From the IMG/VR virus record IMGVR_UViG_3300030012_001430, positions 6,156-70,155 of that record: a stretch of DNA of 64,000 bases, one strand, 5' to 3'. Position 1 is the stretch's first letter; every line of letters starts with the position of its first letter. This stretch comes from a virus. Made by a program: the position numbers and the translations under genes. Below are positions 15,842-38,659 of this stretch, piece after piece. The notes beneath the pieces are model-generated. The model was not told the origin of the DNA and did not search any database. It saw nothing but the letters and a program-made list of their open reading frames with translations.

Positions 15842-16351
15842 ATGAGTTGGCAAGATATTCTGAAAGAGATGGATGCTGAAGAGGAACTTGAGAGAGATGC
15901 TCTAAGAAGAGATATTGAAGCGGAGCGATATTCAGAGTCTTATGAGAAACCTAGTTTCAAGAAGGTTGAAGAAAAGTTGAGGGAGTTAAGAGACATAACT
16001 ATTCCGCAGGATAGGCGAATGTTGGAATTTGTAACTCGTCAAGGATTCAAACATCCAACACTTACTATTGGAAAACTAAACTCTCTTCTAAGGAAGATTT
16101 ATCAGGCCGAGAGAGAACTTGAAAAGGTAAAGAAAGAGGCTAAGAAGTATGCTGATGAGAATCCAAACTACGGCCCTGATGACGTATTATTGAATGAGGT
16201 ATTTGAAGACTCAGATTCGGAATACGCTACTGATAGGGGCTTTCAGATGTTAATGAGCAATCAGATTGATGGTGAAAATCTTGGTTTTGGAATAAACATA
16301 GCAAGCAGTGTTAGAGAGTATCAACAGTTATTTTCGAGGCGCAAACTATGA
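15842..16351 (+). CDS. hypothetical protein with MSWQDILK N-terminus
   Basis: GAGGTG upstream; shared tag. Confidence 0.75.
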   Translation: MSWQDILKEMDAEEELERDALRRDIEAERYSESYEKPSFKKVEEKLRELRDITIPQDRRMLEFVTRQGFKHPTLTIGKLNSLLRKIYQAERELEKVKKEAKKYADENPNYGPDDVLLNEVFEDSDSEYATDRGFQMLMSNQIDGENLGFGINIASSVREYQQLFSRRKL

Positions 16352-16578
16352 GTTGGTTCGATGTTCTGAAACTCGACCCTTTGGAATACAACATGCGAAT
16401 GCGAGAGAGGATGGCAAGCAAAACTCCTGAAGTTCCTAAGACAGAGGCAGAAGCGGAGAAGGTGTGTGCCAAGTGTGGTTCTTCTAATTTCATGAGAGGG
16501 GATTCAGACCCTGAAGGAAGGGAGATTTGTGCTTTGTGCAAAAAGCGATTTTATTCTGATGCAGCAGCGACATCATAA
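16348..16578 (+). CDS. zinc-ribbon protein with MSWFDVLK N-terminus
   Basis: CAKC...CALC. Confidence 0.75.
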   Translation: MSWFDVLKLDPLEYNMRMRERMASKTPEVPKTEAEAEKVCAKCGSSNFMRGDSDPEGREICALCKKRFYSDAAATS

Positions 16579-16604
16579 TTAACTTGGGTGGTATGGGATT
16601 AACG

Positions 16605-17159
16605 ATGAGTGATTGGACAGAGGTTCTCAAGGTAGTGCCAACCTTTGGTGTAGAAGGGAATGAGGGAGCGATAAATGCTCAGATAGAGCAGTTCCAAGAG
16701 AAGCAGATAACTCCATTCGTTACGAACATAGTTGGCAATCTAAAAATGGGTCAACTTCCGGTGTTCAAGTTGAGGGTTGACAACAACGCTGCTAACAGTG
16801 GTGGTCAAGGAGACACGTTTGTTATTGGTCGAGACCAAATCAGAAGGTTAGGGGGAGACCCAAATAGAATCAAGGCAAAGTTGAAGCAGGTTTTCAACAA
16901 GGCAGGATATAAGGTAAAAGACGCTTTCTTGGGCAAGGACATGACTGTTCAGATTCCAAAAACTATGAAAAACAGGTTTAGCGGAAAAAGTATGACTGAC
17001 CCAAGACAGATGCAAGCCATGCAAGCCCAAAGAGGTTTCATGAACAGACTTAGGCGAACTAAAAGAGGTCTCAATCCAATGAACTTAGTTAGGGACAGAA
17101 GAGCAAGAAGATACATGGAAGATAACCCCAATGCTAGGTCATTACAGGGTTCATTCTAA
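16605..17159 (+). CDS. hypothetical protein (MSDWTEVLK...) with basic C-terminus
   Basis: internal ATG at 16605 gives the shared tag. Confidence 0.7.
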   Translation: MSDWTEVLKVVPTFGVEGNEGAINAQIEQFQEKQITPFVTNIVGNLKMGQLPVFKLRVDNNAANSGGQGDTFVIGRDQIRRLGGDPNRIKAKLKQVFNKAGYKVKDAFLGKDMTVQIPKTMKNRFSGKSMTDPRQMQAMQAQRGFMNRLRRTKRGLNPMNLVRDRRARRYMEDNPNARSLQGSF

Positions 17160-17224
17160 ACTCGTCAACAGAACGATTTTAGAACAATGTTTATTGTCCA
17201 CAGTATATTCAGGAGGTTCAGGTT

Positions 17225-17422
17225 GTGTCATCAGTATACGATTCATCTTGGTTTAATATTCTGCGAAGTGCTGGCGCAGTTACCACAACCTCCGGCGGTA
17301 CACAGGCACTATTCAATGTAAGATTCGGGGGAGGAAAGAAGCGTGGTAAAGGGAAAAAGAAACGTGAAAAAGAAACCCACGACAACCGAACTCGCACCCG
17401 GATTGGACGTAGAGTTTCTTGA
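17225..17422 (+). CDS. small basic protein (SWFNILRS tag)
   Basis: GGAGG upstream; Lys/Arg-rich tail; overlaps the next ORF. Confidence 0.55.
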   Translation: MSSVYDSSWFNILRSAGAVTTTSGGTQALFNVRFGGGKKRGKGKKKREKETHDNRTRTRIGRRVS

Positions 17423-18419
17423 AGAAGTTCCTAACTTTTCTGAGTTGTTAGCATCTTGGACTTCAGAGGCTGGCAAGAGCATTCCGAAAATGCCGCAGAC
17501 CATCTTGGAGTTCGTCAGGAACATGGGAGTCAAATCTAGGAAGAACTCGAAGGGTGAGACTCAAGATGTCAAAGCACCAGCACAGGAATACATCAATAGG
17601 GCAGCAAGTGCAGGTGCTGAAGAGTCCTATACTCCTGAACAAATCGCCGCAGTTAAGGCATTGCGTAATTATCTAGAAAGCAACAAGACTGATTCTTCAA
17701 AGTTAAACCCGCAGAATATCAAGTACAACAGCATTGCTGATTATGATAGGAGCGGTAAGGTTCTAGCACCATTGGATGTTTATGGTGATTACCGAACGAG
17801 GAAGTTCGTTAACTATCAGAAGAGATTCAAGGATAAAACATATGAGCAAGCACCTTCACATTGGATTGCAAAAGAACCCGGACAGGCGAAAGTTCCAGTT
17901 TGGCAAGCACTCTTCGGAGAAAGCCAAGATGATTTATTGGACTTCAAGCACCCTAGTCTCCTTATGATTTGCAATGATGTTCTAGAGGCATTTGAAAGTG
18001 GAAAGGCGAAGGCGAGGAACACTAGGCGAAACCCATTCAACTTGACTGTCAAGAATCCGAAGATGAGAGGAGAGGCAGCAAAGTGGGTCTATGAGAACAT
18101 TCCAACTTTCAAGACATGGTTTGACAGTAAAATCAACAACCCCTCCTACGTCTATCGCACAGGAAACATAAATGCTAAGAAATTGCAGAGGGAAATCCTG
18201 AACACTAAACTTCCATTGAACGATGATGAGTCTAAGAAAATACAGTCTTGGCTACAAACCGACCTCAAGGTGGACTTAGAGGAAGTTTACCTGAAGATTT
18301 CAGTAAGGCAACTTAACAACATGGCAGAAATCGCTGGTTTCAAGAATAAGAAAACAGAAGAGAAGGTAGAAAAGCAGGATTTTTCCGATTGGAGACAGAT
18401 AGTAAAGATGGTGCAGTAA
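17343..18419 (+). CDS. hypothetical protein with C-terminal DWRQIVK tag
   Basis: 358 aa ORF. Confidence 0.75.
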   Translation: MVKGKRNVKKKPTTTELAPGLDVEFLEEVPNFSELLASWTSEAGKSIPKMPQTILEFVRNMGVKSRKNSKGETQDVKAPAQEYINRAASAGAEESYTPEQIAAVKALRNYLESNKTDSSKLNPQNIKYNSIADYDRSGKVLAPLDVYGDYRTRKFVNYQKRFKDKTYEQAPSHWIAKEPGQAKVPVWQALFGESQDDLLDFKHPSLLMICNDVLEAFESGKAKARNTRRNPFNLTVKNPKMRGEAAKWVYENIPTFKTWFDSKINNPSYVYRTGNINAKKLQREILNTKLPLNDDESKKIQSWLQTDLKVDLEEVYLKISVRQLNNMAEIAGFKNKKTEEKVEKQDFSDWRQIVKMVQ

Positions 18420-18513
18420 ATGAGATGTAGAGGAATTGTAAAAGTTGGAGAAGATGATATGGCGATATCGAGTTGTTGCCCATATTGCTACACGAATTGT
18501 GAGAGATGAGTAA

Positions 18514-19170
18514 ATGATTACGAGAAAGCGTTGCCCTTTGTGTATGCATGAGGATAGACCCCAACTTGAGGCTGATTTGGAAGCCATGAGTTACTCGGCA
18601 GACGCTTTAGACCAGCAAATGAACTGGAAAAGTGGCACAACAGCAAAGCATCAGAGGAATCACATGGGCGGATATGTCGATTCTGCGAATCCAAGTTGCA
18701 ATATCTGCTCCAACCCGATGAGAGCAGAGATAGAAGCCCAACTTCATGCCGGGGAAATCACACCTTCTGCTGTTGGAGAGATGGTTGGATGCTCAGATGT
18801 CCAAGTTATGCGTCATATGGAGAAACATCTTCAGCCAATCGTCCAACAATCTGCTGCAAACATGATTGCGGCGAGAGAAGTTGATGAAATTGAGACTTTG
18901 AGCGTGAACGTTCAGAGATTGGAGCAAAAAATTGATACACTTTTTGCTGAAGACTCAACAGACCCGAAATATATCGACTCATTGACGAAATTAGCGAAGG
19001 AAGTTCGTGAGTCTCTGAAGTATTTGCTAGAATTCAAGGGCAAACTGGTGCATAAGAGGCAAGACACTATCATCGTTCATCAGATGCAGGTCATCAAGGA
19101 GGTTCTAGCACAGAACCATCCTGAAGTTTGGTTGGATGTGAGGGACAAGATGCAGGAGAGGATGCAATGA
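18514..19170 (+). CDS. putative terminase small subunit / DNA-binding protein with two Zn-HTH repeats
   Basis: CPLCMH...KHQRNH and CNICSN...RHMEKH repeats, then a coiled coil. Confidence 0.55.
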   Translation: MITRKRCPLCMHEDRPQLEADLEAMSYSADALDQQMNWKSGTTAKHQRNHMGGYVDSANPSCNICSNPMRAEIEAQLHAGEITPSAVGEMVGCSDVQVMRHMEKHLQPIVQQSAANMIAAREVDEIETLSVNVQRLEQKIDTLFAEDSTDPKYIDSLTKLAKEVRESLKYLLEFKGKLVHKRQDTIIVHQMQVIKEVLAQNHPEVWLDVRDKMQERMQ

Positions 19171-19607
19171 GTTGGAAGGACACACTAAACAAGTTCGATA
19201 TTAGGAAATCGAGCCAAATTAGATGGGAGATGAATCCAAGAGATGTTTCTGTATTTCTGAAGAATGCTCCTGATGGAAGAGATAGTGGTGAGACAGTAGG
19301 TAGATGTATCGTAGAAGGTGCGTTTCAGGCTGACGTTAGAACTTGGGGAGTAAAGGGCGTTGGCTCTTACGCTACTAGTGTTGAGTTAGACTTTGAATAC
19401 CTAGTCTATGAAAAGGACACTGGTGACGAACAGGAGATTGTTCCATACGAGATAGAGTTTGATGCCGAAAAGTTGAGCAATAATATGCCAACTTCTGAAT
19501 CAGCATTGAATCCCTCTGATGTCACAATCTACATCGACATGAAGAATCAGAGAGATAAAGAGCAGTTTGAGATTAGTGGAGACTTTGAGTGGCAGGGTTC
19601 GTATTAG
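19167..19607 (+). CDS. hypothetical protein (MSWKDTLNK...)
   Basis: ATG overlaps the previous stop; shared tag. Confidence 0.7.
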   Translation: MSWKDTLNKFDIRKSSQIRWEMNPRDVSVFLKNAPDGRDSGETVGRCIVEGAFQADVRTWGVKGVGSYATSVELDFEYLVYEKDTGDEQEIVPYEIEFDAEKLSNNMPTSESALNPSDVTIYIDMKNQRDKEQFEISGDFEWQGSY

Positions 19608-19616
19608 GTGATTAAA

Positions 19617-21482
19617 ATGAATTGGCAAGACGTTCTCAAGGAAAAGGAAACTGGCCCTAAACCAGTTGAGAAGCCAGTAATGGGAACGTGGGACAAGTCA
19701 GGCAAGAGAGCGAAGTTCCACAAAGACCGAAAGAGGAAGTTGGAGAGGCAGAGAGAATCTGCAAAGACGAAGGATGCAAACCTCTTCGATTTTGGGAAGC
19801 AGGAAGTCAAGGACTTTCCAGTGAAACCGAACACACCGACATTCAAGATTTGGCAAGCAGCCTCGAAAGAAGATAGTTGGGAAGAGTATACGAAAGATGG
19901 ATTGAGTTCCTCCCAAGTTCAAACCGCTCAGAAAGCAAGAAGACTCCTTCAAGGTGAAACTGTAAACATTAGAGGAACAGACTTCAAGTTGAGGGATACC
20001 GATATCTTTCCTAACATTGATGCTATCATCGAAAGACTGAGTAAAATAACACCGAAGAAAACCAGTGCAACTAACAAGAGAGGAAACTTAGACAGGGACA
20101 TCAAGAGTTTCATAGAGAACAAAAAATATGCAGAACTTCTAGAAGTCCTAGAAGGCAGAGGAAAAAATAAGTATGCTGGACAACTAGATGCTAGAAACAA
20201 AAGAGCGAGGAATTTCATACAGTCTAACAAGAGCCTTAGAAGAGCATTGTTATCTGACTCCGAGGATAAGTATCCTGAGATAGCGAAGATAAAGAAAATC
20301 CTGAAGATAGGTGGAGTTCCTCAAGTGGAGATTAGGACAAGCATAAGTGATAGCATAGTTATTGACTACATCAAGAAGATAATGAATGTCGCCAACGTAA
20401 ACAAGAAGTTGCCATTCATCTATGGAGACACTAACTCTAACCTCATTGGAACTGCAAAATACATATTTGCAACTAGGGCAATATCTCCTTCATTGGAGTT
20501 CATACTCAACAACGAAGCGATGAATCAGTCAGCAATACCAACGAGTTACAAGAAGCGTAATCTCGTAGAAGACAGAGGATTGAAGAAAATAATCAACGAA
20601 GTCGTCAGTGGTCCGAGCATCAGTGTAATCTATGACAAGTACAAAGAAGACATCGAGGCATTCTATGGTAGGAAGAACGAGACTCCTGAACAAAGGGAAG
20701 AGAGAATAAAAATCACATCTGACACATCCCCGAAGAAATGGCAGGACATCTCAAGGAAGGGGAACAGAGCAAAGCGGCAGATGTTTGCAGATATAAGAGC
20801 AGACGAAGATGCCAATGCGGAGTTCGAGGAAGCAATGTCCGATGACGAAGGAAACCCCATGACTGAAGAGATAAGGGATGAGTTAGTCGAAGCATTGGAT
20901 GATGAATCTGCAAGCAGGTTCATGAAGGCAATAAAGAAACTTGGAATAAACGATTCCTTCGAGTCGATAGATGATGTCGAGGAAGAGATAGGTGACATCG
21001 ATGATGTCATTGAGGCTCTTAACAATATGAGACTAAGGCGTTCAGACAATACAATGCAAGCACTATCAGCAGATAAGGCCAAACTCACATACTTTGAGAA
21101 TGAGAAGGTAGATGCTTGGTCTGTTCTTGAGGATGTCATTCGTGGAGATGTAGTAGACAACTCAATGACTCCTAACGAAAAGGATGGGACACTAACCCAC
21201 ATAGTAACCACATTGGATAAATTGGGTAAATTGTATGACGCAGGAGACATACAAGAAGACGAGTATGATTTAGCAGACGGAGAAATAACATCCGAGGAGT
21301 TCAAGGAAAGGGTGATTGAACAGTATCCCAAGATAAGGAAGGCTTTCCTCGATGGTGTGAAGGATAGAATGAAGGACATAAGTGCAGAGGGCAAGGCAAT
21401 GGGAATCAAGATACCTAGTCCTGAAGGCGGGTTTGTAGAACCTGCTATTTGGATTCAGATATCACAGGGGGTTAGAGAATGA
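19617..21482 (+). CDS. large charged protein (MNWQDVLK...), putative internal virion protein
   Basis: about 620 aa; basic N-half, acidic C-half; shared tag. Confidence 0.75.
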   Translation: MNWQDVLKEKETGPKPVEKPVMGTWDKSGKRAKFHKDRKRKLERQRESAKTKDANLFDFGKQEVKDFPVKPNTPTFKIWQAASKEDSWEEYTKDGLSSSQVQTAQKARRLLQGETVNIRGTDFKLRDTDIFPNIDAIIERLSKITPKKTSATNKRGNLDRDIKSFIENKKYAELLEVLEGRGKNKYAGQLDARNKRARNFIQSNKSLRRALLSDSEDKYPEIAKIKKILKIGGVPQVEIRTSISDSIVIDYIKKIMNVANVNKKLPFIYGDTNSNLIGTAKYIFATRAISPSLEFILNNEAMNQSAIPTSYKKRNLVEDRGLKKIINEVVSGPSISVIYDKYKEDIEAFYGRKNETPEQREERIKITSDTSPKKWQDISRKGNRAKRQMFADIRADEDANAEFEEAMSDDEGNPMTEEIRDELVEALDDESASRFMKAIKKLGINDSFESIDDVEEEIGDIDDVIEALNNMRLRRSDNTMQALSADKAKLTYFENEKVDAWSVLEDVIRGDVVDNSMTPNEKDGTLTHIVTTLDKLGKLYDAGDIQEDEYDLADGEITSEEFKERVIEQYPKIRKAFLDGVKDRMKDISAEGKAMGIKIPSPEGGFVEPAIWIQISQGVRE

Positions 21483-24443: not shown

Positions 24444-24929
24444 ATGGCAGATATACAAATCAAGGAAGTGTCGAAGGATGATGCCTTCTTCATGTGGAAC
24501 AGGGACAACCCTGATGACCCATTTGTGAGAAACGCTCCTTCTTGGTATGACTTGGATAATTGGGTTGTCAGAACAAACGATGGTGAGGTCGTTGGTGTTG
24601 CTGGTTATAGTGACAAAGGAGACTACGGAATCTTAGGTGGCCTGAAGGCGAGAGACAGAAATGCACCGAAAGGCGGTGGAAACTGGAAGGCACTCTTGCA
24701 ATATAGAATGGACAAGTTAGCAGGTAAGCCTAAGATTCTAGGGCTTCGGTCTACGAAGATACCACAGCAAACATGGGTTGGTTTGCATAGAAATCTAAAG
24801 TTTCAAACTGAGGACTTGATGGGAATACCCGAAGAGTTAGTCGATAAGTTTCGACAGAGATATGGAGATGATTGGGGAATCAAGAAGAACTTGGGTTGGA
24901 GATTCATTCTCGCTAGGGGGCTAATCTGA
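24444..24929 (+). CDS. GNAT-like protein
   Basis: MADIQIKEVS...GEVVGVAGY...ILGGLK...GNWKALL; AGGTGAGG upstream. Confidence 0.55.
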   Translation: MADIQIKEVSKDDAFFMWNRDNPDDPFVRNAPSWYDLDNWVVRTNDGEVVGVAGYSDKGDYGILGGLKARDRNAPKGGGNWKALLQYRMDKLAGKPKILGLRSTKIPQQTWVGLHRNLKFQTEDLMGIPEELVDKFRQRYGDDWGIKKNLGWRFILARGLI

Positions 24930-25685
24930 TTGAATTGGTTTCACATACTCAAACTAGGAGGAGAGGATTTAGGCGTACCTCCTGAGAAGGATGCGGAGTC
25001 CTATGACGATGCGATAAGAGAAAAGAAAGATTTCTTCCACAACTTGAGAAATGTCGCTACTACTAGACCACATTTTGAATACTCAGCAAAAAAGAAATTT
25101 CAAGGAAATAAAATAGAAGGAAACCTGAAAGGAATTGCACAGGCGATAGGAAATAAAGGGGCAGTTGGAAGATTACACATAGCATTCTCAGACCCATTCA
25201 ATTCAGATTATGTCGTATCGTTTAGAAGGCTTAAACCTGAAGACACCTATACTTCATCTATGCGTCCCTCAAAGTTCAATAGACCTGCAAAACCAAAAGA
25301 CTTGGGAAACACTGATTCAGTGATATTGTTTGATAGTGTTTATTCTACAAGCGATGTCGCTAGACTGAAGAGAGTATTCTCATCACCATTTCAAGCACTA
25401 CTGCCGATTTGGGGAGAGGATGACAAAAGGAGACTCCGTGAGGTCATGGCAGAAAAAAGCCAAACCAATGTAGCAGACGCACTCGAAGAGAGTAGAAAAC
25501 TAAACAGGGAACTAGAGAGTCTTTACAAGAAGAACAAGAACAGAAAAATTACCCCTCAACAAAAAGAGAAGAACTTTGACCGCATTGATGAGATAAAAAA
25601 TCGGTTGCAAAGGCTACGCAGACTTACACAGAGAGGTAAAGGCAGAAGAGACCGACCCACAAACATATTTGGAGGCTCGACATGA
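24930..25685 (+). CDS. hypothetical protein (MNWFHILK...)
   Basis: shared tag; basic coiled-coil tail. Confidence 0.7.
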   Translation: MNWFHILKLGGEDLGVPPEKDAESYDDAIREKKDFFHNLRNVATTRPHFEYSAKKKFQGNKIEGNLKGIAQAIGNKGAVGRLHIAFSDPFNSDYVVSFRRLKPEDTYTSSMRPSKFNRPAKPKDLGNTDSVILFDSVYSTSDVARLKRVFSSPFQALLPIWGEDDKRRLREVMAEKSQTNVADALEESRKLNRELESLYKKNKNRKITPQQKEKNFDRIDEIKNRLQRLRRLTQRGKGRRDRPTNIFGGST

Positions 25686-27118
25686 CTGACATGGAAAATC
25701 TAGATTTCATGTCTTCTATGGACATGGAGTTGTCTAAGACATCCTTTCCATATTTCTTCAAGAATGTACTAGGAATGATGTATCCCGAATACATGAAAGA
25801 GTGGCTAGAGTCTATGGAGAGGACAGACAGGACAGTTATTGTTTGTAGCAGAGACCACGGAAAGTCAGTCTTCATGCATTGTTGGGTTGTATGGAATCTA
25901 ATTTTCCAAGAGCCTCCCTTTCAGATGCTATACATATCATCGAACCAAAAGCAGACACTTGTTCACATGAGGGAAATTGATAGATACTTCAACCATCCAG
26001 CGTTGAAACAATTCAAGCCTAGTCGTGGATGGGCAATTGGGAATATTCAACTTACCAACGGCAATGCGATTCTAGAGCGTTCCGTTGGTTCTCAGATTCG
26101 TGGTCTTCACCCACAGGAGATTATCATTGACGACCCCTTGAAAGAGTTCAGTCTCGCTGGTATTCAGAGAGTAACAGATTGGTTCTTCGGTGACATGATT
26201 CCGACTCTGCATCATACTTCCAAACTCAGGATGATTGGAACGCCGTTTACCTACACTGATATCTTCGCACAATTGGAAGAGAATGAAGCATACACTGTGA
26301 CAAAGTATCCATGTCTCGATGCATTGAACGAACCTCTTTGGCCTGAGCGTTGGGACTATGACGCACTAATGCAAAGAAAGGCTGAGATAGGTTCTCTGAA
26401 GTTTACAAGAGAGTATCTGTGTGTTCCTATCTCCACAGGAACTGCTCTATTCAATCCTGAGTTCATAGAGAAGTGCAAGAACAAGGAGTATGTTCTGAAA
26501 CTTGGAAATAGAAAGGATAAGGGATACAAATACTATGTTGGTGTTGACCCTGCTATCTCGACTGATGGAGACTACAATGTTATCACAGTCCTAGAGGTAG
26601 ATGAGAATAAGAACAAGGCAATCGTCCATGTTGATAGAGCGAAGAACATAGAGTTCAGGGAGAACATCGAGAAGATACGATTGATTGGCAAGGTGTTTGA
26701 GCCGGAGGAGATTCTGTTTGAGACCAACACATTTGCAAAGGCATTTACACAGGAACTGAAGAACATGACAGATTTGAATGTCAGAGACTTCAACACAACG
26801 AGAAAGAAGAAACAGGAGATAATTCTAAATCTTCAAATGAATATTGAGAATCAGAAGATAATCATGCCCTATGGTGACAATGCAAGTAGGAGACTCACTG
26901 GTGCATTAATTGAGGAGTTATCCATGTTCTCGATAACAGCATCAGGGAAGTTTGAGGGAGTTGGCGCACATGACGATTTGGTTATGAGTTTGGCACTTGC
27001 CAATGCTGCTTCACAAGGAACGGGAGGACAGTTTGTTTTACTTGATGACTTGGACATCTTTGATGAACCTACTACTACTCGGCGTAGTGTATCCGGTGTC
27101 ATGGGTATCAACTTTTGA
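25682..27118 (+). CDS. terL: terminase large subunit
   Basis: SRDHGKS Walker A, IIIDD Walker B, IGTP motif III, VGVDPA nuclease motif, HDDLVMSLALA. Confidence 0.95.
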   Translation: MTDMENLDFMSSMDMELSKTSFPYFFKNVLGMMYPEYMKEWLESMERTDRTVIVCSRDHGKSVFMHCWVVWNLIFQEPPFQMLYISSNQKQTLVHMREIDRYFNHPALKQFKPSRGWAIGNIQLTNGNAILERSVGSQIRGLHPQEIIIDDPLKEFSLAGIQRVTDWFFGDMIPTLHHTSKLRMIGTPFTYTDIFAQLEENEAYTVTKYPCLDALNEPLWPERWDYDALMQRKAEIGSLKFTREYLCVPISTGTALFNPEFIEKCKNKEYVLKLGNRKDKGYKYYVGVDPAISTDGDYNVITVLEVDENKNKAIVHVDRAKNIEFRENIEKIRLIGKVFEPEEILFETNTFAKAFTQELKNMTDLNVRDFNTTRKKKQEIILNLQMNIENQKIIMPYGDNASRRLTGALIEELSMFSITASGKFEGVGAHDDLVMSLALANAASQGTGGQFVLLDDLDIFDEPTTTRRSVSGVMGINF

Positions 27119-28466: not shown

Positions 28467-30098
28467 ATGGTAGAAGAAAAAAGACCCTCCTTGTTTCAGC
28501 GTTTAACACGCAGGACAACACCGAAGCCACAAGACAGAACGATATACAATCCGGGTATTCAGGAGAAAGACACATCCTATCTCATTACAGCCCCAATAAT
28601 CTATCATGTCACATACCAATCTGTGATTGCTAGAACTTGTATCACTCAACTAAAGAATGAGATATTCAGAAGAGGATACACTTGGGAAGAGAAGTTTACT
28701 GCTAGATGTGGTGACTGTGGAAGAGAACACAAGCAAGCCGTGACAGAGTGTGTAGATTGTAGTAGTCAGAATCTAATAAAGCCTGATAGAGACCAATTGA
28801 AATACATCAAGAAACTACTAGATGGCTATGTAAACAAAGGCGAGCAGATGTTCGTTGATGTTCTGAAGGAGATGGAAGACGACTTGAACATCATGGATGA
28901 TGCATACATGGTCATGGTCAAGGAATATTTCGTAGATGGAAACGGCGATATTCGTATGCATCGAATAAAGGAAGTCTATCGTGGCGACCCTGTTAGTATG
29001 CATATATATGCAGATGAGAACGGTACGAGAGGGAATGAAGGATTCACTTGTTTGAATCATCGTAACTTCGTCAGCAAGTCTATGACAGACTCCTGTGAGA
29101 TGTGCGGCTCTGAATTGCATCCAGTGCATTATGTCAATAGAGCAAACGGAAAAGAGCAGTATTTCATCGAGGGTGAGGTTCTACACTTCAGTAAGTATGC
29201 CCCTTCAAGATTGTATGGGCAATCACCAATCATGACTCTTTGGAATCACATCACTACCTTGATTGCTATGGAGAACTATGTGAACTCTTCATACACGAAG
29301 GCTAGGATGCCAAGAGGAATACTTGCAGTTCAAACTAGAAACATGGAATCAATGAAGTCCTTTTGGCGTGGTGTCAAGGAGAAGATGGAGCAAGACCCTC
29401 ACTTCATTCCAGTTATGGGAATAGAAGGCGAAGGGAAAACAGGTGCAGTTGAATGGGTCAAGTTCATGGACAGCCTCAAGGAAATGGACTACATACAAGT
29501 CAAGGAAGACTTGAGAGATAGAATCGCTGCCTTCTATGGAGTAAGTAAAATATTCATGGCAGACAACTCTGCCAGTGGTGGTCTCAACAACGAGGGTATG
29601 CAGATACTCGTAACCAACAGAGCAGTCGAGATGGCACAGACGATTTGGAATGAGTATGTGTTCCCATTCATGACAAAGGAGTTTGGAATCACAGATTGGC
29701 AGTTGAAACTACCGCCTTCTGAAGAAGAAGATGAGATTGCCAAACTACGAAAGAGGGAGATTGAAGTTAACGTAGCAGCGTCAATCAAGAACCTCGGCTT
29801 TGAGGTTGACATGGATGACGAAGGCAGATTCACTTTCAAGAAGCCTGACCCTAAACCCGAAGCACCACCGGAAGAAGCAGCAGAGGGGGAAGTAGAGACT
29901 GACCCATACGCAGGAACTGATATCGATGCAAGTCAATTAGGACAATTACAAGAACAGGCTTTGATGGGTGGTCAAGGCGGTGGAGAGACTAGAAACAAAC
30001 CATCTATGGAAACTGGCCCTGATAAGAGATTCACAGGATTACCTAGAGAAGCAGGTAATGAGAATGTTGATTCACGAACGGAGAGGAGAGTAGGTTGA
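28467..30098 (+). CDS. portal protein with Zn-ribbon insertions
   Basis: downstream of terL; LYGQSPI, PRGIL, IAAFYGVS portal-like motifs. Confidence 0.85.
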   Translation: MVEEKRPSLFQRLTRRTTPKPQDRTIYNPGIQEKDTSYLITAPIIYHVTYQSVIARTCITQLKNEIFRRGYTWEEKFTARCGDCGREHKQAVTECVDCSSQNLIKPDRDQLKYIKKLLDGYVNKGEQMFVDVLKEMEDDLNIMDDAYMVMVKEYFVDGNGDIRMHRIKEVYRGDPVSMHIYADENGTRGNEGFTCLNHRNFVSKSMTDSCEMCGSELHPVHYVNRANGKEQYFIEGEVLHFSKYAPSRLYGQSPIMTLWNHITTLIAMENYVNSSYTKARMPRGILAVQTRNMESMKSFWRGVKEKMEQDPHFIPVMGIEGEGKTGAVEWVKFMDSLKEMDYIQVKEDLRDRIAAFYGVSKIFMADNSASGGLNNEGMQILVTNRAVEMAQTIWNEYVFPFMTKEFGITDWQLKLPPSEEEDEIAKLRKREIEVNVAASIKNLGFEVDMDDEGRFTFKKPDPKPEAPPEEAAEGEVETDPYAGTDIDASQLGQLQEQALMGGQGGGETRNKPSMETGPDKRFTGLPREAGNENVDSRTERRVG

Positions 30099-30199
30099 GC
30101 GAACTCCTTGACATTGTTAAGAAGTGGAAAGAAGAAACAGAAAAGCGTAATGCAGAGACAGATGAAAGAATTAGGAAGTATTTGGAGGGCAAGAAATGA
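30095..30199 (+). CDS. 34 aa microprotein
   Basis: TTG overlaps the portal stop and its TGA overlaps the next ATG. Confidence 0.45.
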   Translation: MSELLDIVKKWKEETEKRNAETDERIRKYLEGKK

Positions 30200-31164
30200 C
30201 TCTTTGGTTTGAGGAATTGAAGAAAGAGAAAGACGCTTGCTACCGCAAGGTCAGAAGCAGATACAAGAAGTGGCCTTCTGCCTATGCTTCAGGTGCATTA
30301 GTACAATGCAGAAAAGTAGGTGCTGCTAATTGGGGTAACTCAGTTAAGAAAGCAGAATCGAAATACACACCTGAGAACCTATCAGATGAAAAGAGAAGAC
30401 TGTTCGAGTCAGAACCCTCTTTCGATGTAGATTTTCCTGACTATGAGCATCCTGAGAATGAGAAAGAACTTCCAAAGGTTCTAGCCATAATGAAGAAAAA
30501 AGAAATTGACGAGGATGAGATAGAAGACCTAGACCAAAACAACAACGAGATGATGTTGAAGATTGTTGGTGAGAGTAAAGAGGATAGAGAAGATTTGATT
30601 GAGGATATTGATATTCACACAATCAAACTCAAGGTGAAATATGGAAGACCAAGACCTTACGAGATATCCGATAAGATAGAATCTACAACAGATACGGATG
30701 ATAGTCCATCTTTTCCAAGTGGTCATGCGATAGAAGCATACGCCTTAGCCAAGATTCTAGGTAAGGAGTATCCCGACAAGCAAGAGGAGTTGGATAAGAT
30801 GGCTGCTAAGATATCATTGTCTAGAGTTCAGATGGGCAACCATTACCCAAGTGACATCGAAGTAGGAAAGAAGGCTGGCACACTAATTGGTGAGACATAT
30901 CTAGATGGTGACATGAAGAAATCATGGGAAGAGATGCTAGTCAAGGATTGGGTTAGTTGTGCATCATGTGAAGATGACAAACCCGGAACAGAGCCTTGTG
31001 GAAGAAAGGATGCATCCAAGGGAACAAAGAGAAGATGCAGACCAACCTGCTCTGCTTGTGAAGATTACAAGAGAAGAGGCGGGAAACCGAAGAAAAGAAA
31101 GGCAGGTACGTTTAGCAGAGAAGAAGACAAGGGACTTCGTGGTTGGTTTGAAAGGAGGGGTTAG
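30196..31164 (+). CDS. PAP2/vanadium-haloperoxidase-family phosphatase domain flanked by basic Cys-rich modules
   Basis: K-x6-RP (KVKYGRPRP), PSGH and SR-x5-H-x3-D (SRVQMGNHYPSD) all present. Confidence 0.85.
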   Translation: MTLWFEELKKEKDACYRKVRSRYKKWPSAYASGALVQCRKVGAANWGNSVKKAESKYTPENLSDEKRRLFESEPSFDVDFPDYEHPENEKELPKVLAIMKKKEIDEDEIEDLDQNNNEMMLKIVGESKEDREDLIEDIDIHTIKLKVKYGRPRPYEISDKIESTTDTDDSPSFPSGHAIEAYALAKILGKEYPDKQEELDKMAAKISLSRVQMGNHYPSDIEVGKKAGTLIGETYLDGDMKKSWEEMLVKDWVSCASCEDDKPGTEPCGRKDASKGTKRRCRPTCSACEDYKRRGGKPKKRKAGTFSREEDKGLRGWFERRG

Positions 31165-31452
31165 ATGAGTTGGTTTAGTATTGTCAAGAAGGACAAGAAA
31201 GATATGCGAGTTGGAACTGTATATCCTTCAGATAGAGAAGGAAAGAAAATCATGATGCTGACTCATGAAGGAAAGAAGATTCATGCTGGTGCTAAAGGCT
31301 ACGGTAACTACAAGAGAAAGGGTAAGAACCGTGGTGGAGGTACACATAGAAACCCCGCTAGGAGAAAGAATTTCAGAGCGAGGCATAACTGTGACCAATG
31401 TAAAGGTAGAATTACTACCCCCAAGTGCCTTGCATGTAAAAAATTGTGGTGA
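31165..31452 (+). CDS. small basic viral protein (MSWFSIVKK...)
   Basis: KKIHAGAKGY...RRKNFRARHNC pattern seen in small basic viral proteins. Confidence 0.7.
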   Translation: MSWFSIVKKDKKDMRVGTVYPSDREGKKIMMLTHEGKKIHAGAKGYGNYKRKGKNRGGGTHRNPARRKNFRARHNCDQCKGRITTPKCLACKKLW

Positions 31453-31457: not shown

Positions 31458-31706
31458 ATGAATTGGTGGAATGTGATTAAACAAACTGACATGCCGATGC
31501 CTGATGCTGGTATGGAAATGGATGCAGAAGAAGGTGGAATAAAACCTGCTAAAGACATGCATGAGGCAAGGGAACATCCTGTTGACCCTGCTATTGCAGA
31601 AGAAATGGAAAAGACACTTTATGGTGGACAGAAGAAACTTGACAAAGACGGAGATGGAGACATCGATGGTAAGGATTTCAAACAACTAAGGGAGGAAAAG
31701 AAATGA
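31458..31706 (+). CDS. small EF-hand protein (MNWWNVIK...)
   Basis: LDKDGDGDIDGKDF canonical EF-hand loop. Confidence 0.75.
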   Translation: MNWWNVIKQTDMPMPDAGMEMDAEEGGIKPAKDMHEAREHPVDPAIAEEMEKTLYGGQKKLDKDGDGDIDGKDFKQLREEKK

Positions 31707-31933
31707 CAGAAGAAAAGAAAGGTGTAAGAGAATTAGAAAAAGAACTAGCGAACGCAAGGGCAGAGCAATATGCTCACCACAGTAGGAATGCCACCAAGAA
31801 CAGGGACTTCTCTGTGGGTGGTATCGACCCTAATGCCGTGAAGAAGGAGAGACCTGATACAGCAGATGTTCCTGATGCAATTCTACTACCTAAGAGAAAG
31901 AGAGCGAAAACACCAAACAATCCGTGGGGATGA
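31703..31933 (+). CDS. hypothetical protein
   Basis: coupled to neighbours; GGAGG upstream. Confidence 0.65.
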   Translation: MTEEKKGVRELEKELANARAEQYAHHSRNATKNRDFSVGGIDPNAVKKERPDTADVPDAILLPKRKRAKTPNNPWG

Positions 31934-33504: not shown

Positions 33505-33525
33505 GCATACACAGGAGGCAACCAC

Positions 33526-33855
33526 ATGACATGGCAGGAGATACTGAAAGCCTCCGAGTTTCTAGAGAAACTAGAGCCTAAGCAGAAGAAGAAGATAAAG
33601 AAACTTCTTCAGTCAACTCAGCCAACTGAGTACATGGGACAGGAGATGACGAAGTTAGAAGATGTCATCAAAGAGATGGAAGACCTCGACTTAGTGAAGA
33701 ACGACAAACTGCTTGCCAAGAAGATGAAGTCGTTCCGTGAGAAGAACCTAGACATACTTGCAAGTGCTGCCGAACTTCGCAAAGACTATCAAACGCTGTA
33801 TGACCAAATCAGAAGTGTAGCGTACCCAAAGGGAGAGAAGGAGGAGAAGAAATGA
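33526..33855 (+). CDS. helical protein (MTWQEILKAS...)
   Basis: AGGAGG upstream; shared tag. Confidence 0.75.
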   Translation: MTWQEILKASEFLEKLEPKQKKKIKKLLQSTQPTEYMGQEMTKLEDVIKEMEDLDLVKNDKLLAKKMKSFREKNLDILASAAELRKDYQTLYDQIRSVAYPKGEKEEKK

Positions 33856-33922
33856 AACTCAGAATCGTTGAGGATATAGAGTGGCATAAGGGTATGAGCC
33901 TTCCAATGTTAGGTGATTTAGA

Positions 33923-34105
33923 ATGAGTTGGTTTGAAACACTGAAGGGAGTTTGTGGCACAGAGAAGTCAGATGAGATGGCAAGAGTTACAACAACGGCC
34001 TCCACCGGACAAGATGAAGAAGCGGCCAAGAGGACTGAGGATAAAGAAGCAGAACTACTGGCTATGATACGAGAGAGAAACAGAAAAGCGAGGGAAAGTA
34101 GATGA
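33923..34105 (+). CDS. small protein (MSWFETLKG...)
   Basis: AGGTGA upstream; shared tag. Confidence 0.7.
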   Translation: MSWFETLKGVCGTEKSDEMARVTTTASTGQDEEAAKRTEDKEAELLAMIRERNRKARESR

Positions 34106-34326
34106 GTAAGAAAGAAGAAAAAAATGAAATGTTACTATTAATGAAAGAACTTGTAAACAAGGTTAACGCCTTGGAGCAAGCCGTATACAACAAGGACAAC
34201 ATACTGATGAAGTCAGGATTGGTTGTTCGTGAAACTCCAACACCAGTAATTGCGAATACGCAAGTACCTGATGGTGGTCAAATGTCTTGGGATGAGATTC
34301 GCAAGATGACGGAGAAAATGGGGTGA
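34102..34326 (+). CDS. small coiled-coil protein with C-terminal MSWDEIRKM
   Basis: tail resembles the scaffold C-terminus. Confidence 0.7.
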   Translation: MSKKEEKNEMLLLMKELVNKVNALEQAVYNKDNILMKSGLVVRETPTPVIANTQVPDGGQMSWDEIRKMTEKMG

Positions 34327-34331
34327 AACAA

Positions 34332-34817: not shown

Positions 34818-34823
34818 TGGTGG

Positions 34824-37388
34824 ATGACAACATCAGGCGTATCCTTTGAGAAGGAAACTAAGGCTCTATCAAAAAGAGTTCTAGATTTCTTTGAGAGGGT
34901 GCGTTATGCATATCTATCTGCAAAGGAGAATCCGAAGGAATACGGTAAGAAGTGGAAGTCAACTGTGAAGTCTATTCGTGAGGAATATGATGGCTTAGGA
35001 GAGTTCGCCTCAGAACTGAAAGACAGTATCACAGAGAAGGAACTCTTCGATGACAAGATATTCGATGCTGAGAGCCTTCTTGCTAGAAGAGTCTATGAAG
35101 ATGTAAAGAGAATGAGATTCGAGTCGAAGGGAGCATCCGACCCATTCTCTGAGCAACTAGGAGACAAGGTTCTAGAGGTTCTTCTAGAAGACAAGGCAAC
35201 ATTTGCAGCATTCATCCATTATGCATTGCGAAGCCATTCAAACCCAATACCAAAGAAGGCATGGCAAGAGAATGGCCTAAAGCCCGATGAGATAACTCAA
35301 GGATACATGGGTCTAGACTTAGAAGACAAAGACATCCCCCTATACATAATAGAGCATTATGGTGACGACAAGGACTCTAGAAGAGTAAAGGGTAAGTTCA
35401 AGGAAGCAAGAGAGTTACTAGAGAAGGTATATGATGAGAGTTACTCAGAGGAAAAGTGGGACTCTCTAGTAGAGGTTGACATCGCAAAGTCAGAAGAGGA
35501 GAAAGAAGACATTGATTTCATAATACCGAACAAACCAATGTATCGAATATTTGAACTCGATGATATGAAGGACATCAAGGGATTGAGCGGTGAGTATGTT
35601 GTTCAAGAGAAGTATGACGGAATGAGAATACAGATTCACAAGATGGGAGATAACATCAAGATATACTCATACAACGAGAAGGATATCACTGATAAGTGTC
35701 CTGAAGTAGTCGAGAAGATGGGTAAGAAAGGGATAGGAGATTGCATACTGGATGGAGAACTACTTCTCTTTCAAGGAGATGAGGCATTACATAGAGCAAG
35801 TGTGATTACTCATGTGTTCAAGAAGAAGATACCCGATACTAAACTAAGGGCGCATGTGTTTGATGTGATGAAACACGAAGGAAAGGACTTGATGGATGAG
35901 CCTCTAAGAGAGAGAATCAACATAATGTTCTATCAATACTCACAGCATTCTTCTGAAGAACTTGCTTTCCCCTCAAAGAAAGATACTAGAATCGCTGACT
36001 CCATGAAGGAAGTCGGGGAGTATGCAGAGAAGATAATGGAGATGCCAACCTCAGAAGGAGTTGTAATCAAGGACATAGAATCAACTTACTACATGGGTAG
36101 GAAGAAGAACCCGAAGTGGATTAAGTGGAAGAAGTTCGTTGACCTAGATGTGATAGTTCTAGAAGACAAGAAAACGAAGAGTGGCCTACATTCCTATACA
36201 ATGGGTATTGGTCCTCTCACTGCTGAACAGACTAGGGAAATGAAAACAATGGAACTTGATGACAAGAACTACCTTCCTGTTGGTAAGGCATTGAATACCA
36301 AAGTCGAGGTTGATGTTGGAAGCATCATTCGTGTAAAGGTGGATGAAGTCACCAAGAAAGGAAAGGGATTCAGTCTCTATTCTGCTAAAGTGATAGAGTT
36401 ACCTGAAGTGGATGAGTCTGACAAACTAGAGACTTTAGAACAACTAGCGACTAAGACCAAGAAAGCATTAGTCCCTAAGCATCCTTTCGTAAAGCCATCT
36501 GATTTGGCTAATCCATTGACTGTGATAGCAGAGTTGCAGCAAGAGAAGAGAGACAAAAAGAGAATCAAGAAGTATATTGTGACTGATTATGTTCATGGAG
36601 AAGCAGAGATAATCTGCAAGCATGAGTTAGATGGTTTCACTGTTTATGGTTTCGATGGAGACCAATTGATGCAGAAGAATGCATTGCATAACATGGATGT
36701 ATGGAAGGAACAACTAGAGAAACTAATGAAGTCTAGGAAATCGAAACTAAGAGTAGCAATTAGGAAGATAATAGAGGACAATCAGAAAGCAATGGAGTTT
36801 GATGAACTAGAGGAGAAACTCAGAGTAACAGAAGAGGATGCCTATGATGAAATCTTTGAGGGCAAGCCAAAGAATCTACTATCTTGGATGAAGAATCAAG
36901 ATGCATTCGTGTTCCTTTCACCTAACAGGTTTGATGTATCTCCTGAGAATATAGAGAAGGACGAAGATGATGAACTAGCAGGAGAGTTTGAAGTTCGCCA
37001 ACGTGAAGACGGTAACTTGGATTTTGTCATCCAAACAGACAAAGACAGAATGGCTTGGTTGATAGACTTAGAAAAGCCTGAAGACATCTTTGACTTATTC
37101 GGTAAGTCCGGCAAGTATCCAGCGAAGGTATCTGAGAAGATAGACAGCACGAAGATAATAGACAGTGGAGAACTTATCTTCGGCGTTCAACGAGATGGGT
37201 ATCATGAATATAGAATGGAAGGAGACAAGTTCCAAACTAGAATACACTTCAGGGTTGTTCCTCTAGATGAGAAAAAGTCTTGGATTGTATTCACAGGCAA
37301 GAAACAAGACATGTTGGACGATAAATCTGATGAGGGAATCATCGATATCACAAAGGACAAGTATAGCAATTTAGAACTACCTGAATAA
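34824..37388 (+). CDS. lig: ATP-dependent DNA ligase, multidomain
   Basis: motif I QEKYDGMR, III ILDGEL, IIIa FDVM, IV EGVVIK, V WIKWKK, then an OB fold; extra N- and C-terminal domains. Confidence 0.9.
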   Translation: MTTSGVSFEKETKALSKRVLDFFERVRYAYLSAKENPKEYGKKWKSTVKSIREEYDGLGEFASELKDSITEKELFDDKIFDAESLLARRVYEDVKRMRFESKGASDPFSEQLGDKVLEVLLEDKATFAAFIHYALRSHSNPIPKKAWQENGLKPDEITQGYMGLDLEDKDIPLYIIEHYGDDKDSRRVKGKFKEARELLEKVYDESYSEEKWDSLVEVDIAKSEEEKEDIDFIIPNKPMYRIFELDDMKDIKGLSGEYVVQEKYDGMRIQIHKMGDNIKIYSYNEKDITDKCPEVVEKMGKKGIGDCILDGELLLFQGDEALHRASVITHVFKKKIPDTKLRAHVFDVMKHEGKDLMDEPLRERINIMFYQYSQHSSEELAFPSKKDTRIADSMKEVGEYAEKIMEMPTSEGVVIKDIESTYYMGRKKNPKWIKWKKFVDLDVIVLEDKKTKSGLHSYTMGIGPLTAEQTREMKTMELDDKNYLPVGKALNTKVEVDVGSIIRVKVDEVTKKGKGFSLYSAKVIELPEVDESDKLETLEQLATKTKKALVPKHPFVKPSDLANPLTVIAELQQEKRDKKRIKKYIVTDYVHGEAEIICKHELDGFTVYGFDGDQLMQKNALHNMDVWKEQLEKLMKSRKSKLRVAIRKIIEDNQKAMEFDELEEKLRVTEEDAYDEIFEGKPKNLLSWMKNQDAFVFLSPNRFDVSPENIEKDEDDELAGEFEVRQREDGNLDFVIQTDKDRMAWLIDLEKPEDIFDLFGKSGKYPAKVSEKIDSTKIIDSGELIFGVQRDGYHEYRMEGDKFQTRIHFRVVPLDEKKSWIVFTGKKQDMLDDKSDEGIIDITKDKYSNLELPE

Positions 37389-37426
37389 CCACCTACTTCA
37401 TATAGTAAGAAGTTTAGGTGCAGTGA

Positions 37427-38659
37427 GTGTTTGTTGAACAGGAGGTATTGATTAGACAGGAGAGTGCTAGTGATTTCACTATTCTCAAGTCAGATAATCT
37501 AGTAATCGGAGGATATGCATCCATCGAAATAGTAGATAAGCAAAATGACTTGATAACACTAGAAGCACTTGAAAAAGCCGTTAAAGATTTCATGAGTGAG
37601 AAGTCTTACAGAAACGTCATGTCAAATCATTCCAATGTTCAAGTAGGAGAGGTGATAGAGCAATACCGTGATTCCAATGGTACATTACACAAGACAGGTG
37701 TAGATGGTGTCGGATTCTATGTAGTTATCAAAATGAGAGATGACATAGAGAAGGCAAAGGAAATTAACAGAGGAATCAGAAAAGGCACACTACGTTCCTT
37801 CAGTATCGGTGGACAAGCGATATCAAAGAGAGAAAGGAAATCGGAGGAATACGGGGAATACAACGAGATTGACAACTTGGAGTTGCATGAAGTTACTATA
37901 TGTGAAAAAGGAATAAACCCTGAAGCGAAATTCGACATTTTAAAAGCGAAAGGAGGTAAAGAAATGACGGAAAAATTGACGAAAGCACTGGAAGAACTCA
38001 ATGGTCTGCTAACGCAGGTTCGTGAGGTCACTGGTGACTCAGTTACAAAAGAAGATGAATTGGAGACAATGGAAATGAAAGAAGAAGAAACGATGAAAGA
38101 AGAAGAAGTTGAGAGCATGGACATGGCAGATAAAATGTCGATGAAGGAAGACGAAGTTGAGAGCATGGACGATATGGACAAGGCTCTTGATGAGGACTCG
38201 ACAAGAGATTACGAGGCCGGAGAAGAAGTAGTAAGTGGCGGAAAGCCAAAGGCTGCTCCTGCTGCCCTCTCAGTCTCTAAGGGTCTAGAAGGGTCTGACT
38301 TTACTACTCTCGACTTGAGTGCCGAGAATGTGGAGAAGGCTTACGAGGCTTACAAAGCAGAGCAACTAGAGGCAATGGCTTACGATAACCTATCGAAGCA
38401 ATTCGCTGACAGATTCGCTGCTGAACTCGAAGTTAAGAAATCAGCCGCAGAGCGAGCAGAGTACGATGCTTCGTCAGAAGTAGCGGCTCTCAAAGAGGAG
38501 TTTGCAGAACTACGCAAGTCCCTTACCGCAAAAGACGATGAGATTAGGAAAGCAACAGAAGTCGCTTTCTCTCTACCTGAAGGATTCCCAACAACTGCTG
38601 ATGCGGTTGCTGAGATGTCATGGGGAGACATACACAACCTCGCAAGGAAGGTGAACTAA
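37427..38659 (+). CDS. prohead protease fused to scaffolding domain
   Basis: IGGYAS..VDKQND, NHSN, SFSIGG, EVTICEKGINPEA; acidic coiled-coil C-terminal half; immediately precedes the capsid gene. Confidence 0.9.
   Translation: MFVEQEVLIRQESASDFTILKSDNLVIGGYASIEIVDKQNDLITLEALEKAVKDFMSEKSYRNVMSNHSNVQVGEVIEQYRDSNGTLHKTGVDGVGFYVVIKMRDDIEKAKEINRGIRKGTLRSFSIGGQAISKRERKSEEYGEYNEIDNLELHEVTICEKGINPEAKFDILKAKGGKEMTEKLTKALEELNGLLTQVREVTGDSVTKEDELETMEMKEEETMKEEEVESMDMADKMSMKEDEVESMDDMDKALDEDSTRDYEAGEEVVSGGKPKAAPAALSVSKGLEGSDFTTLDLSAENVEKAYEAYKAEQLEAMAYDNLSKQFADRFAAELEVKKSAAERAEYDASSEVAALKEEFAELRKSLTAKDDEIRKATEVAFSLPEGFPTTADAVAEMSWGDIHNLARKVN

Follow-up and report, generated by a model that had tools for sequence, protein, structure and literature searches.

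Introduction

The internal proteins of phage T4 carry N-terminal propeptides of 10-19 residues, which direct them to the scaffolding core and which the head protease takes off (PMC9026906, section 2.6). As that section describes them, the propeptides have their targeting determinants in front and their processing determinants in back, and the head protease itself has cleavage-like sites near both ends. The proteins are a diverse counter-defence set with the targeting sequence alone in common (PMC3012670). Described here is an octapeptide, M-S-W-x-[DE]-[IV]-[LIV]-K, termed the tag, that recurs at the ends of otherwise unrelated proteins in a 64,000-nucleotide stretch of viral DNA (the window; positions 6,156 to 70,155 of IMG/VR record IMGVR_UViG_3300030012_001430, a single contig of 70,155 bases). 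Judged by its gene content, the window is a magrovirus (order Magrovirales), a tailed virus of marine Poseidoniales archaea.

Two other head systems are pertinent. In HK97 the gp4 protease, of the S78 family, cuts the gp5 capsid protein at K103/S104 within an unstructured stretch, and scaffold density has been described beneath the capsomer close to the spine helix as well as the N-arm (PMC10275583). For the giant phage SPN3US, some 50 head proteins are described, with more than 40 MDa of ejection proteins (PMC7411985).

The magrovirus tag stands at protein termini, is conserved as a peptide and is confined to the arm of the genome that leads up to the capsid gene; it is identical in part to the C-terminal tail of the scaffold and in part to conserved Lys sites in the head protease and the capsid protein. 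The evidence tips towards a terminal docking peptide for capsid loading. From the sequence we infer that tagged proteins would be bound, packaged, cleaved and injected.

Copies of the Tag in the Window

A preliminary description had placed the motif at 12 N-termini and four C-termini. All 12 N-terminal strings were found in translations of the open reading frames (ORFs), at the starts to which they had been assigned, and so were all four C-terminal strings. All lie on the plus strand. The first copy, MSWQDILK (15842..15865), begins a protein of 169 amino acids (15842-16351) and is the top match of a position matrix, at residue 2. It is followed by MSWFDVLK (16348..16371) on a 76-amino-acid protein with two CxxC motifs (16348-16578) and by MSDWTEVLK (16605..16631), which has one additional residue before the Trp, on a 184-amino-acid protein (16605-17159). 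MNWQDVLK (19617..19640) starts a protein of 621 amino acids (19617-21482) whose cluster carries the strict motif in 33 of 53 members. NWFHILK (24930..24953) follows a TTG start in a 251-amino-acid protein (24930-25685). MSWFSIVK (31165..31188) and MNWWNVIK (31458..31481) begin, respectively, a 95-amino-acid DUF5754 protein (31165-31452) and an 82-amino-acid protein with a weak EF-hand match (31458-31706), the latter from a cluster in which 14 of 14 members are tagged. MTWQEILK (33526..33549) stands on a 109-amino-acid protein (33526-33855; strict motif in 44 of 79 cluster members, variants on most others) and MSWFETLK (33923..33946) on a 60-amino-acid protein (33923-34105; 36 of 37 members tagged). 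Two further N-terminal copies are degenerate: MSWKDTLNK (19167..19193), with T-L-N-K, on a 146-amino-acid protein (19167-19607), and MTLWFEELKK (30196..30225), with E-L-K, on a 322-amino-acid PAP2-family protein (30196-31164).

Tags at the C-terminus are rare and comprise two families and a scaffold-type variant. DWRQIVK (18387..18407) lies three residues ahead of the stop (..SDWRQIVKMVQ) in a 358-amino-acid protein (17343-18419) whose cluster has the C-terminal motif in 16 of 19 members. GWRFILAR (24894..24917) lies at the end (..GWRFILARGLI) of a 161-amino-acid protein (24444-24929); the strict motif is at the C-end of 13 of 44 members of its cluster, with looser variants on others.

The string SSWFNILR (17243..17266) is near an N-terminus, not at it: in the ORF 17225-17422, which has a GTG start, the Trp is residue 9. 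The same string recurs in the relative L004. This 65-amino-acid ORF has a Lys-rich end and overlaps, in another frame, the start of the 358-amino-acid C-tagged ORF, and the overlap spans an A-rich stretch (GGGAAAAAG). In L004 the corresponding two motifs are likewise in different frames. The pair could be overlapping genes, or a programmed frameshift could join them into a single protein with a tag at either end; a homopolymer error common to both sequences is a third possibility.

Consensus and Occurrence in Related Viruses

The consensus of the lineage is M-S-W-[FEKQ]-[DENS]-[IV]-[LIV]-K, with no conservation beyond the Lys. In the three plus frames of the window the strict motif W-x-x-[ILV]-[ILV]-[KR] has 11 matches, ten of which fall within 15.8-33.6 kb; nine of these are at or near an N-terminus and one is C-terminal. 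The DNA pattern ATGNNNTGGNNNNNNRTNNTNAAR matches six times, against a mean of 0.05 in 100 shuffles, none of which reached six. When a position matrix made from related loci was run over 68 hand-picked window ORFs (19,682 residues), the top seven matches were all at residue 2 and ten of the top 11 at residues 2-3. A chance origin of the tag is excluded.

Relatives were taken as the 80 IMG/VR loci with a related portal gene (68-98% identity), the best 80 of 211 matches, and with the window they form 81 sources. Motif matches close to an ATG number 349 on the gene strand of the 80 loci and three on the opposite strand. Clustering of 2,367 plus-strand ORFs by BLAST gave 582 clusters; at least one tagged member is present in 117, and in 111 the tag has the canonical M-x-W form. 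With one representative per family, these 117 give the residue counts M109 at position 1, S74, N13 and T9 at position 2, W117 at position 3 and F33, E28, K24 and Q12 at position 4; then follow D50, E14, N14 and S13, I75, V22 and T12, L64, I28 and V22, and at position 8 K112 and R5, after which there is noise. An alignment of 70 tagged N-termini from different clusters leaves only M1 and W3 invariant, with K8 at 90% or more. The tagged proteins had been described as otherwise unrelated, and the eight canonical proteins of the window do belong to eight different BLAST clusters.

The tag is widespread. A collection-wide scan with one codon version of it matched at least 132 stretches, and some 4-kb loci carry up to nine tagged small ORFs in series. 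Five tag-bearing contigs have no nucleotide similarity to the first 80 loci. Four of them nevertheless possess a capsid gene of the same family (E 1e-205 or better), and the remaining one is a fragment that is 18% complete. No published account of the motif was found in the main texts of the magrovirus papers PMC5434244, PMC11706807 and PMC10160649, nor in searches of the wider literature on magroviruses, on archaeal-virus capsid targeting sequences or on conserved N-termini of virion and ejection proteins. One related contig of 29 kb (L082, NZMJ01000101.1), with a portal 74% identical to that of the window, is filed in a metagenome-assembled genome labelled Maricaulis sp., a bacterium; the label is probably a binning error.

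Genomic Location of Tagged Genes

Over the 81 sources, the tagged ORFs divide into 158 ahead of the terminase gene, 18 in the stretch from terminase to portal, 211 from portal to capsid gene and none beyond the capsid gene, downstream of which 71 kb in the loci and 24 kb in the window were covered. In ten related contigs, six of them rated 100% complete, the DNA pattern gave 55 + 61 = 116 matches (one of the 61 is spurious, as it holds a stop codon), and a reversed-pattern control gave 0 and 1. With two exceptions the matches are on the strand of the capsid gene wherever that strand is known (114/116). They fall within about 30-40 kb upstream of that gene, wrapping over contig ends.

Gene counts from simple gene calls agree, with the arm taken as the 40 kb upstream of the capsid gene and only its plus-strand genes counted. 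In the distant relative G004, 24 of 50 arm genes are tagged and 0 of 71 elsewhere (p = 9e-12); in G001 the figures are 9/43 and 1/80 (p = 3e-4). The tag had been reported as not seen in tail genes, and its frequency in and out of the head region had been proposed as a check on a head function. Nine of the 24 window genes that start at 15.8-38.66 kb are tagged, and none of the 44 genes outside 15.8-38.7 kb, tail genes among them, carries it (p = 3e-5); the motif is not equally frequent in the two regions.

The tag extends beyond recognizable head genes. In relatives it is also present on a long series of small genes upstream of the terminase, and at 82.7-95.5 kb of G004 the strict motif is on 23 of 25 consecutive genes, with near-variants on the remaining two. 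G004 also has seven tandem paralogues of 167-806 amino acids (L219:3817-9600) in which the tag is followed by a second conserved stretch (..LKNIQISSQRTSSKDY..), and an eighth at the opposite contig end (L215:5-679); none of these paralogues has a Pfam match. Two capsid genes are present on the 184,733-base contig G006, separated by about 91.5 kb and each accompanied by tags of its own; the contig looks like two genome lengths joined head to tail, or two relatives fused.

The Scaffold Tail and Conserved Lysine Sites

The S78 prohead protease of the window is fused to an acidic scaffold domain (37427-38659, plus strand). Its end, ..MSWGDIHNLARKVN before the stop, contains the tail motif MSWGDIHNL (38615..38641). 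A 74-amino-acid mini-scaffold-like protein (34102-34326) ends in ..MSWDEIRKMTEKMG and has the scaffold-type motif MSWDEIRK (34282..34305). A further scaffold-type motif, WLDVRDKM (19129..19152), is at the C-terminus of a 218-amino-acid protein (18514-19170) whose G004 homologue terminates in ..EVWTEIRDSVAERLQ. The tripeptide MSW occurs seven times in the window proteome. Five occurrences are N-termini; the two internal ones are both about 13 residues from a C-terminus, in the protease-scaffold (..EMSWGDIHNLARKVN) and in the mini-scaffold-like protein (..QMSWDEIRKMTEKMG). The Met two residues before the Trp is conserved in 59 of 65 protease-scaffold orthologues and 77 of 77 mini-scaffolds, and G004 shows the same scaffold tails. 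Tags and both tails thus have M-S-W-x-[DE]-I in common. As the internal MSW is conserved at the tails, the initiator Met of the tag doubles as the Met of an independent scaffold-tail motif. In P22 and related systems it is by the C-terminus that the scaffold binds coat protein.

The end of the tag resembles a different set of sites. Only the Pfam families Peptidase_S78 and S78_2 match the protease. Just ahead of its protease domain (Pfam S78 match from residue 26) the fusion has F-T-I-L-K at residues 17-21 (37475..37489). A second pentapeptide, F-D-I-L-K, occupies residues 169-173 (37931..37945), where the S78 match stops, at residue 173, and gives way to a variable linker; the sequence at this point, KGINPEAKFDILK, is invariant in 60 of 60 orthologues, and F-D-I-L-K is the commonest form of the last five tag residues. 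Both pentapeptides are putative autocleavage sites. The two that flank the protease domain have the form of the tag end, and this in turn resembles N-A-L-L-K, a putative maturation cut site conserved at residues 24-28 of the capsid protein (38730..38744), in the flexible, low-confidence N-arm. The Lys column of the N-arm is basic in 85 of 94 distant capsid representatives (K 78, R 7), with a hydrophobic residue two positions earlier in 77 of the 94. At residues 4-9 the capsid protein also has a tag-like Y-I-N-T-V-K (38670..38687): of 24 lineage sequences, 23 have the form aromatic-x-x-[TS..]-hydrophobic-[KR] at the N-terminus, and of 94 distant representatives only 1 has it.

The Tagged Proteins

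The proteins that carry the tag are mostly small, with a median length of 104 residues (n = 111 representatives). In none of the 111 does a 19-residue window reach a mean hydropathy of 1.6 or more, the threshold for a membrane-like segment, and an interpretation of the tag as a signal peptide or membrane anchor was rejected on this ground. Pfam matches at E 0.001 or better were obtained for five of 110 representatives (DUF5754, PAP2 and DUF1540 above their cut-offs and two weak ones), and for none of the 28 tagged proteins of G004.

The tag is modular and is joined to varied domains. In the protein at 31165-31452, DUF5754 begins at residue 18, from profile position 2. The PAP2 match begins at residue 144 of the window protein and at residue 100 in the relative L001 (portal 97% identical), where the PAP2 protein has the canonical tag MSWFDTIK. 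The PAP2-family phosphatase of the window (30196-31164) has no membrane segment. Between its tag and its catalytic domain is a module of about 50 residues that is internal in three PHROG families of unknown function.

Within the interval from portal to scaffold, families that carry the tag are replaced more rapidly than neighbouring families that lack it. The Jaccard index is 0.58 for tagged versus 0.93 for untagged families over 45 close pairs, and 0.31 versus 0.61 over 2775 pairs.

A Candidate Capsid-loading Peptide

The tag may be the address by which small soluble proteins, a large set that changes quickly, reach the procapsid as it assembles. The first half of the tag, M-S-W-x-D/E-I, appears to copy the C-terminal tail of the protease-scaffold and the mini-scaffold, and by virtue of that copying the tagged proteins would dock at the scaffold's own site. 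Such a site could be the inner face or the N-arm of the HK97-fold capsid protein, or else the scaffold core itself. The second half, [IV]-L-K, would correspond to the likely cut site of the HK97-type (S78) head protease, and the tag would probably be clipped after assembly, with the cargo freed in the head and delivered with the DNA. It is tentatively proposed, with rather less confidence than is placed in capsid loading as such, that scaffold-tail mimic and protease site together form a two-part code, usable at either terminus, by which a hypervariable set of 10-25 effectors per genome is pre-loaded for co-injection.

A capsid-loading label had been suggested in the preliminary description, and that suggestion stands in part. 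It is in keeping with the confinement to the capsid arm, the sharing of the scaffold tail, the match to Lys sites and the soluble, fast-changing nature of the cargo. It is not in keeping with a tag limited to recognizable head genes, since nearly half of the arm genes of G004 are tagged, or with frequent use of the C-terminus.

Several findings weigh against capsid loading. For a genome of 95 kb there are very many tagged genes (24 of 121 in G004 by the strict motif), and the tagged arrays open the rightward gene block by a divergent region, where one would likewise expect genes for early takeover of the host. G001 has one tagged ORF (..MSWFSILK.., contig 3003-3740, minus) that is not part of the arm and is encoded on the other strand. 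The rarity of C-terminal tags is expressed in one match in 66 well-populated families, about twice the interior rate. Likeness to the scaffold tail is partial: the tails carry H, N or R at the L-K positions of the tag, and for this reason score low on the tag matrix. A bias towards AGT at the second codon of the tag implies some nucleotide-level constraint at the start as well. The host is uncultured, and a search for a virion proteome found none. Halovirus HVTV-1 is the nearest relative in culture, and the tag was not found in its head module, so that its virion data are not transferable.

Alternative Explanations

It has also to be considered that the tag docks on some other viral or host hub, for example a chaperonin, a replication or assembly compartment, or a ubiquitin-like or Atg8-interaction-motif (AIM) type partner. 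Accessory proteins would then be concentrated or regulated in the infected cell and not loaded into capsids, and the scaffold tail would use the same hub for reasons of its own. Strict terminal position and invariant Trp and Lys imply a specific protein partner without specifying which; the runs of up to nine tagged small genes in 4 kb, and of 23 in 25 genes in G004, resemble early or accessory arrays; the window has a ThiF/E1-like gene; and the W-x-x-[IV] core presumably resembles Atg8-interaction motifs. This explanation is nevertheless unlikely. The only other carriers of M-S-W-x-[DE]-I are two head-assembly proteins, which have it at the coat-binding tail, the replication and tail modules are devoid of tags, and the tag end matches the sites that flank the head protease domain. 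Those same sites, with N-A-L-L-K in the capsid N-arm, the conservation of the N-arm Lys across distant capsid proteins and the cut after Lys by the HK97 protease (PMC10275583), could be taken to mean that the tag is mainly a recognition or cleavage site of the S78 protease, by which proteins are trimmed, activated or destroyed, with no role in head entry. Here the difficulty is that to trim eight residues from the start, or three to five from the end, of more than 100 unrelated proteins would have no evident purpose unless the peptide had acted earlier. Head proteases of the S78 family act inside the procapsid, and substrates must therefore enter it first. The invariant Trp and the M-S prefix are moreover outside the protease-site core and are common to the scaffold tails, which lack L-K. 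A purely proteolytic function is for these reasons improbable.

A signal in the nucleic acid, for translation initiation or another regulatory purpose, would make the peptide a by-product of a conserved 5′ end. The Ser at position 2 of the tag is encoded by AGT in 79 of 80 families (for example at 15845-15847, 16351-16353 and 31168-31170) and never by AGC, whereas AGT makes up 112 of 515 Ser codons (22%) in eight long genes, and Shine-Dalgarno-like GGAGG or GGTGA sequences precede most tags. The codons for I, V, L and K are on the other hand freely variable, with all six Leu codons in use and AAA and AAG at 206 and 141. The peptide recurs at C-termini and at scaffold tails, far from start codons, and the Ser codons of the tail MSW are mixed (TCT 21, TCA 21, AGT 16, TCG 6). 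Selection acts on the peptide because synonymous codons vary and because the motif recurs at these other positions with mixed Ser codons. A signal at the DNA or RNA level was accordingly rejected as the main explanation, and its probability is very small. Docking for capsid loading remains the interpretation to which the findings as a whole incline.

Genome Context and Other Features

The published hallmarks of magroviruses are a structural module that includes an ATP-dependent ligase and a LAGLIDADG-type endonuclease as insertions, a capsid protein and head genes nearest to those of haloviruses, and a linear, terminally redundant genome of about 100 kb; a ribonucleotide reductase is described for group B (all as given in PMC5434244). 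In the window the ligase gene is between portal and protease, and an endonuclease-like gene is between terminase and portal. Complete relatives are 95-103 kb in length, except G006, and one bears terminal repeats. The assignment to the magroviruses is made because the ligase, the endonuclease-like gene, the halovirus-like capsid protein, the relatives of about 100 kb and the ribonucleotide reductase match these hallmarks.

The head module is anchored by the large terminase subunit (25682-27118, plus strand; phrog_38, E 3e-55), which has no tag. Next on the same strand are the endonuclease-like gene (27128-28465), which matches a PHROG annotated as HNH endonuclease (E 1e-6), the untagged portal protein (28467-30098; phrog_18178, E 1.5e-66) and, further on, the ATP-dependent DNA ligase (34824-37388; Pfam and PHROG matches). 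The protease-scaffold fusion is followed by the major capsid protein of HK97 fold (38661-40022, plus strand), which is the candidate receptor of the tag. It is about 25% identical to the capsid proteins of haloviruses HVTV-1 and HCTV-5. A model built on a deep alignment (A3) is HK97-type, with a predicted local distance difference test (pLDDT) score of 83 and low confidence for residues 1-65 of the N-arm; it superseded a poor model (pLDDT 47) from a shallow alignment (A2). The best match of the capsid model among solved structures is cyanophage Mic1 (6j3q, E 6e-13). Metatranscriptome contigs from four runs in two studies are for the most part from the capsid gene and from the 3′ half of the scaffold gene, and neither gene ranking nor timing is derivable from them.

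Downstream of the capsid gene the plus-strand block continues with the tail tube, tape measure and fibre genes. A 170-amino-acid protein soon after the capsid gene (40450-40962) has a DNA-binding SAP domain at its C-terminus (Pfam E 2.3e-9), and a small GTPase-like protein (41976-42647), with weak Roc, MMR_HSR1 and Arf matches that are all below cut-off, is encoded between head and tail genes. At the other end of the window a minus-strand block (0.1-10.8 kb) comprises a ThiF-like gene, a TFIIB-type zinc-ribbon protein (27.2 bits, slightly below the Pfam cut-off of 29), a class II ribonucleotide reductase and a pyrimidine-dimer glycosylase. Between these minus-strand replication genes and the plus-strand block, in the divergent region at 10.8-11.6 kb, the guanine-cytosine (GC) skew switches sign; this region is a candidate origin or divergent promoter region.

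Comparison with Known Systems

In the surface ocean magroviruses rank among the most abundant viruses; viruses and hosts are uncultured and most of the genes are without known function. Were the tag a label for head loading, as many as a fifth of the genes would gain a location and a likely role, as injected, first-acting proteins, and the label would mark where the arms race between virus and host takes place. It would also be a very short, portable means to load proteins into HK97-type shells. Should the two-part code hold, the packaged proteome of an uncultured, globally abundant group of archaeal viruses could be read from sequence, and the system would connect, in a living form, viral scaffolds with the cargo-loading peptides of encapsulins. 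If instead the tag docks on another hub, it would still be among the most widely reused short linear motifs in a virus genome.

The closest parallel is the capsid targeting sequence (CTS) of the T4 internal proteins IPI-IPIII and Alt. In both systems a short N-terminal peptide is the sole element that diverse, rapidly evolving proteins have in common, close relatives differ in their cargo while conserving the head core genes, and the protease has matching sites near both ends. Both peptides are laid out in two parts; in T4 the front targets and the back is cut, and in the tag the front is that of the scaffold tail and the back that of the protease-type sites. T4 cargo is thought to consist of injected counter-defence proteins, and the same is proposed here. 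There are also clear differences. The magrovirus protease is of the HK97 type (Pfam S78) and fused to the scaffold, unlike T4 gp21, and the putative cut is after Lys and not after Glu. The tag matches the scaffold's own C-terminal tail, is occasionally placed at the C-terminus and occurs in a virus of an archaeal host. Tagged genes number 10-25 per genome, from more than 100 families, compared with a handful in T4. The tag is best regarded as an analogue of the T4 CTS and not as a member of the T4 system.

The coat-binding ends of scaffolds, such as the P22 gp8 helix-turn-helix and those of 80alpha and T7, have a counterpart in M-S-W-x-[DE]-I-H-x-L at the extreme C-terminus of the protease-scaffold and of the coiled-coil mini-scaffold. 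In the magroviruses, unlike these systems, the motif is copied onto the termini of many non-scaffold proteins; we know of no case in P22 or 80alpha where a scaffold motif has been so copied. With HK97 gp4 (S78) the magrovirus protease shares its Pfam family, and a conserved Lys is found in the unstructured capsid N-arm. It differs in being fused to a scaffold domain, and the putative capsid propeptide is of about 28 residues, as against the 103-residue delta domain. SPN3US is similar in that dozens of different proteins can be loaded in one head and processed by the head protease; its genome is 240 kb, its head T=27 and its protease T4-type, whereas the magrovirus genome is about 95 kb.

Encapsulin cargo-loading peptides are, like the tag, short N- or C-terminal peptides on unrelated cargo, and docking on the inner face of an HK97-fold shell is proposed here as well. 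The targeting-peptide consensus of encapsulins differs in sequence from the tag, and the magroviruses, unlike encapsulins, possess the terminase and portal of a genome-packaging machinery.

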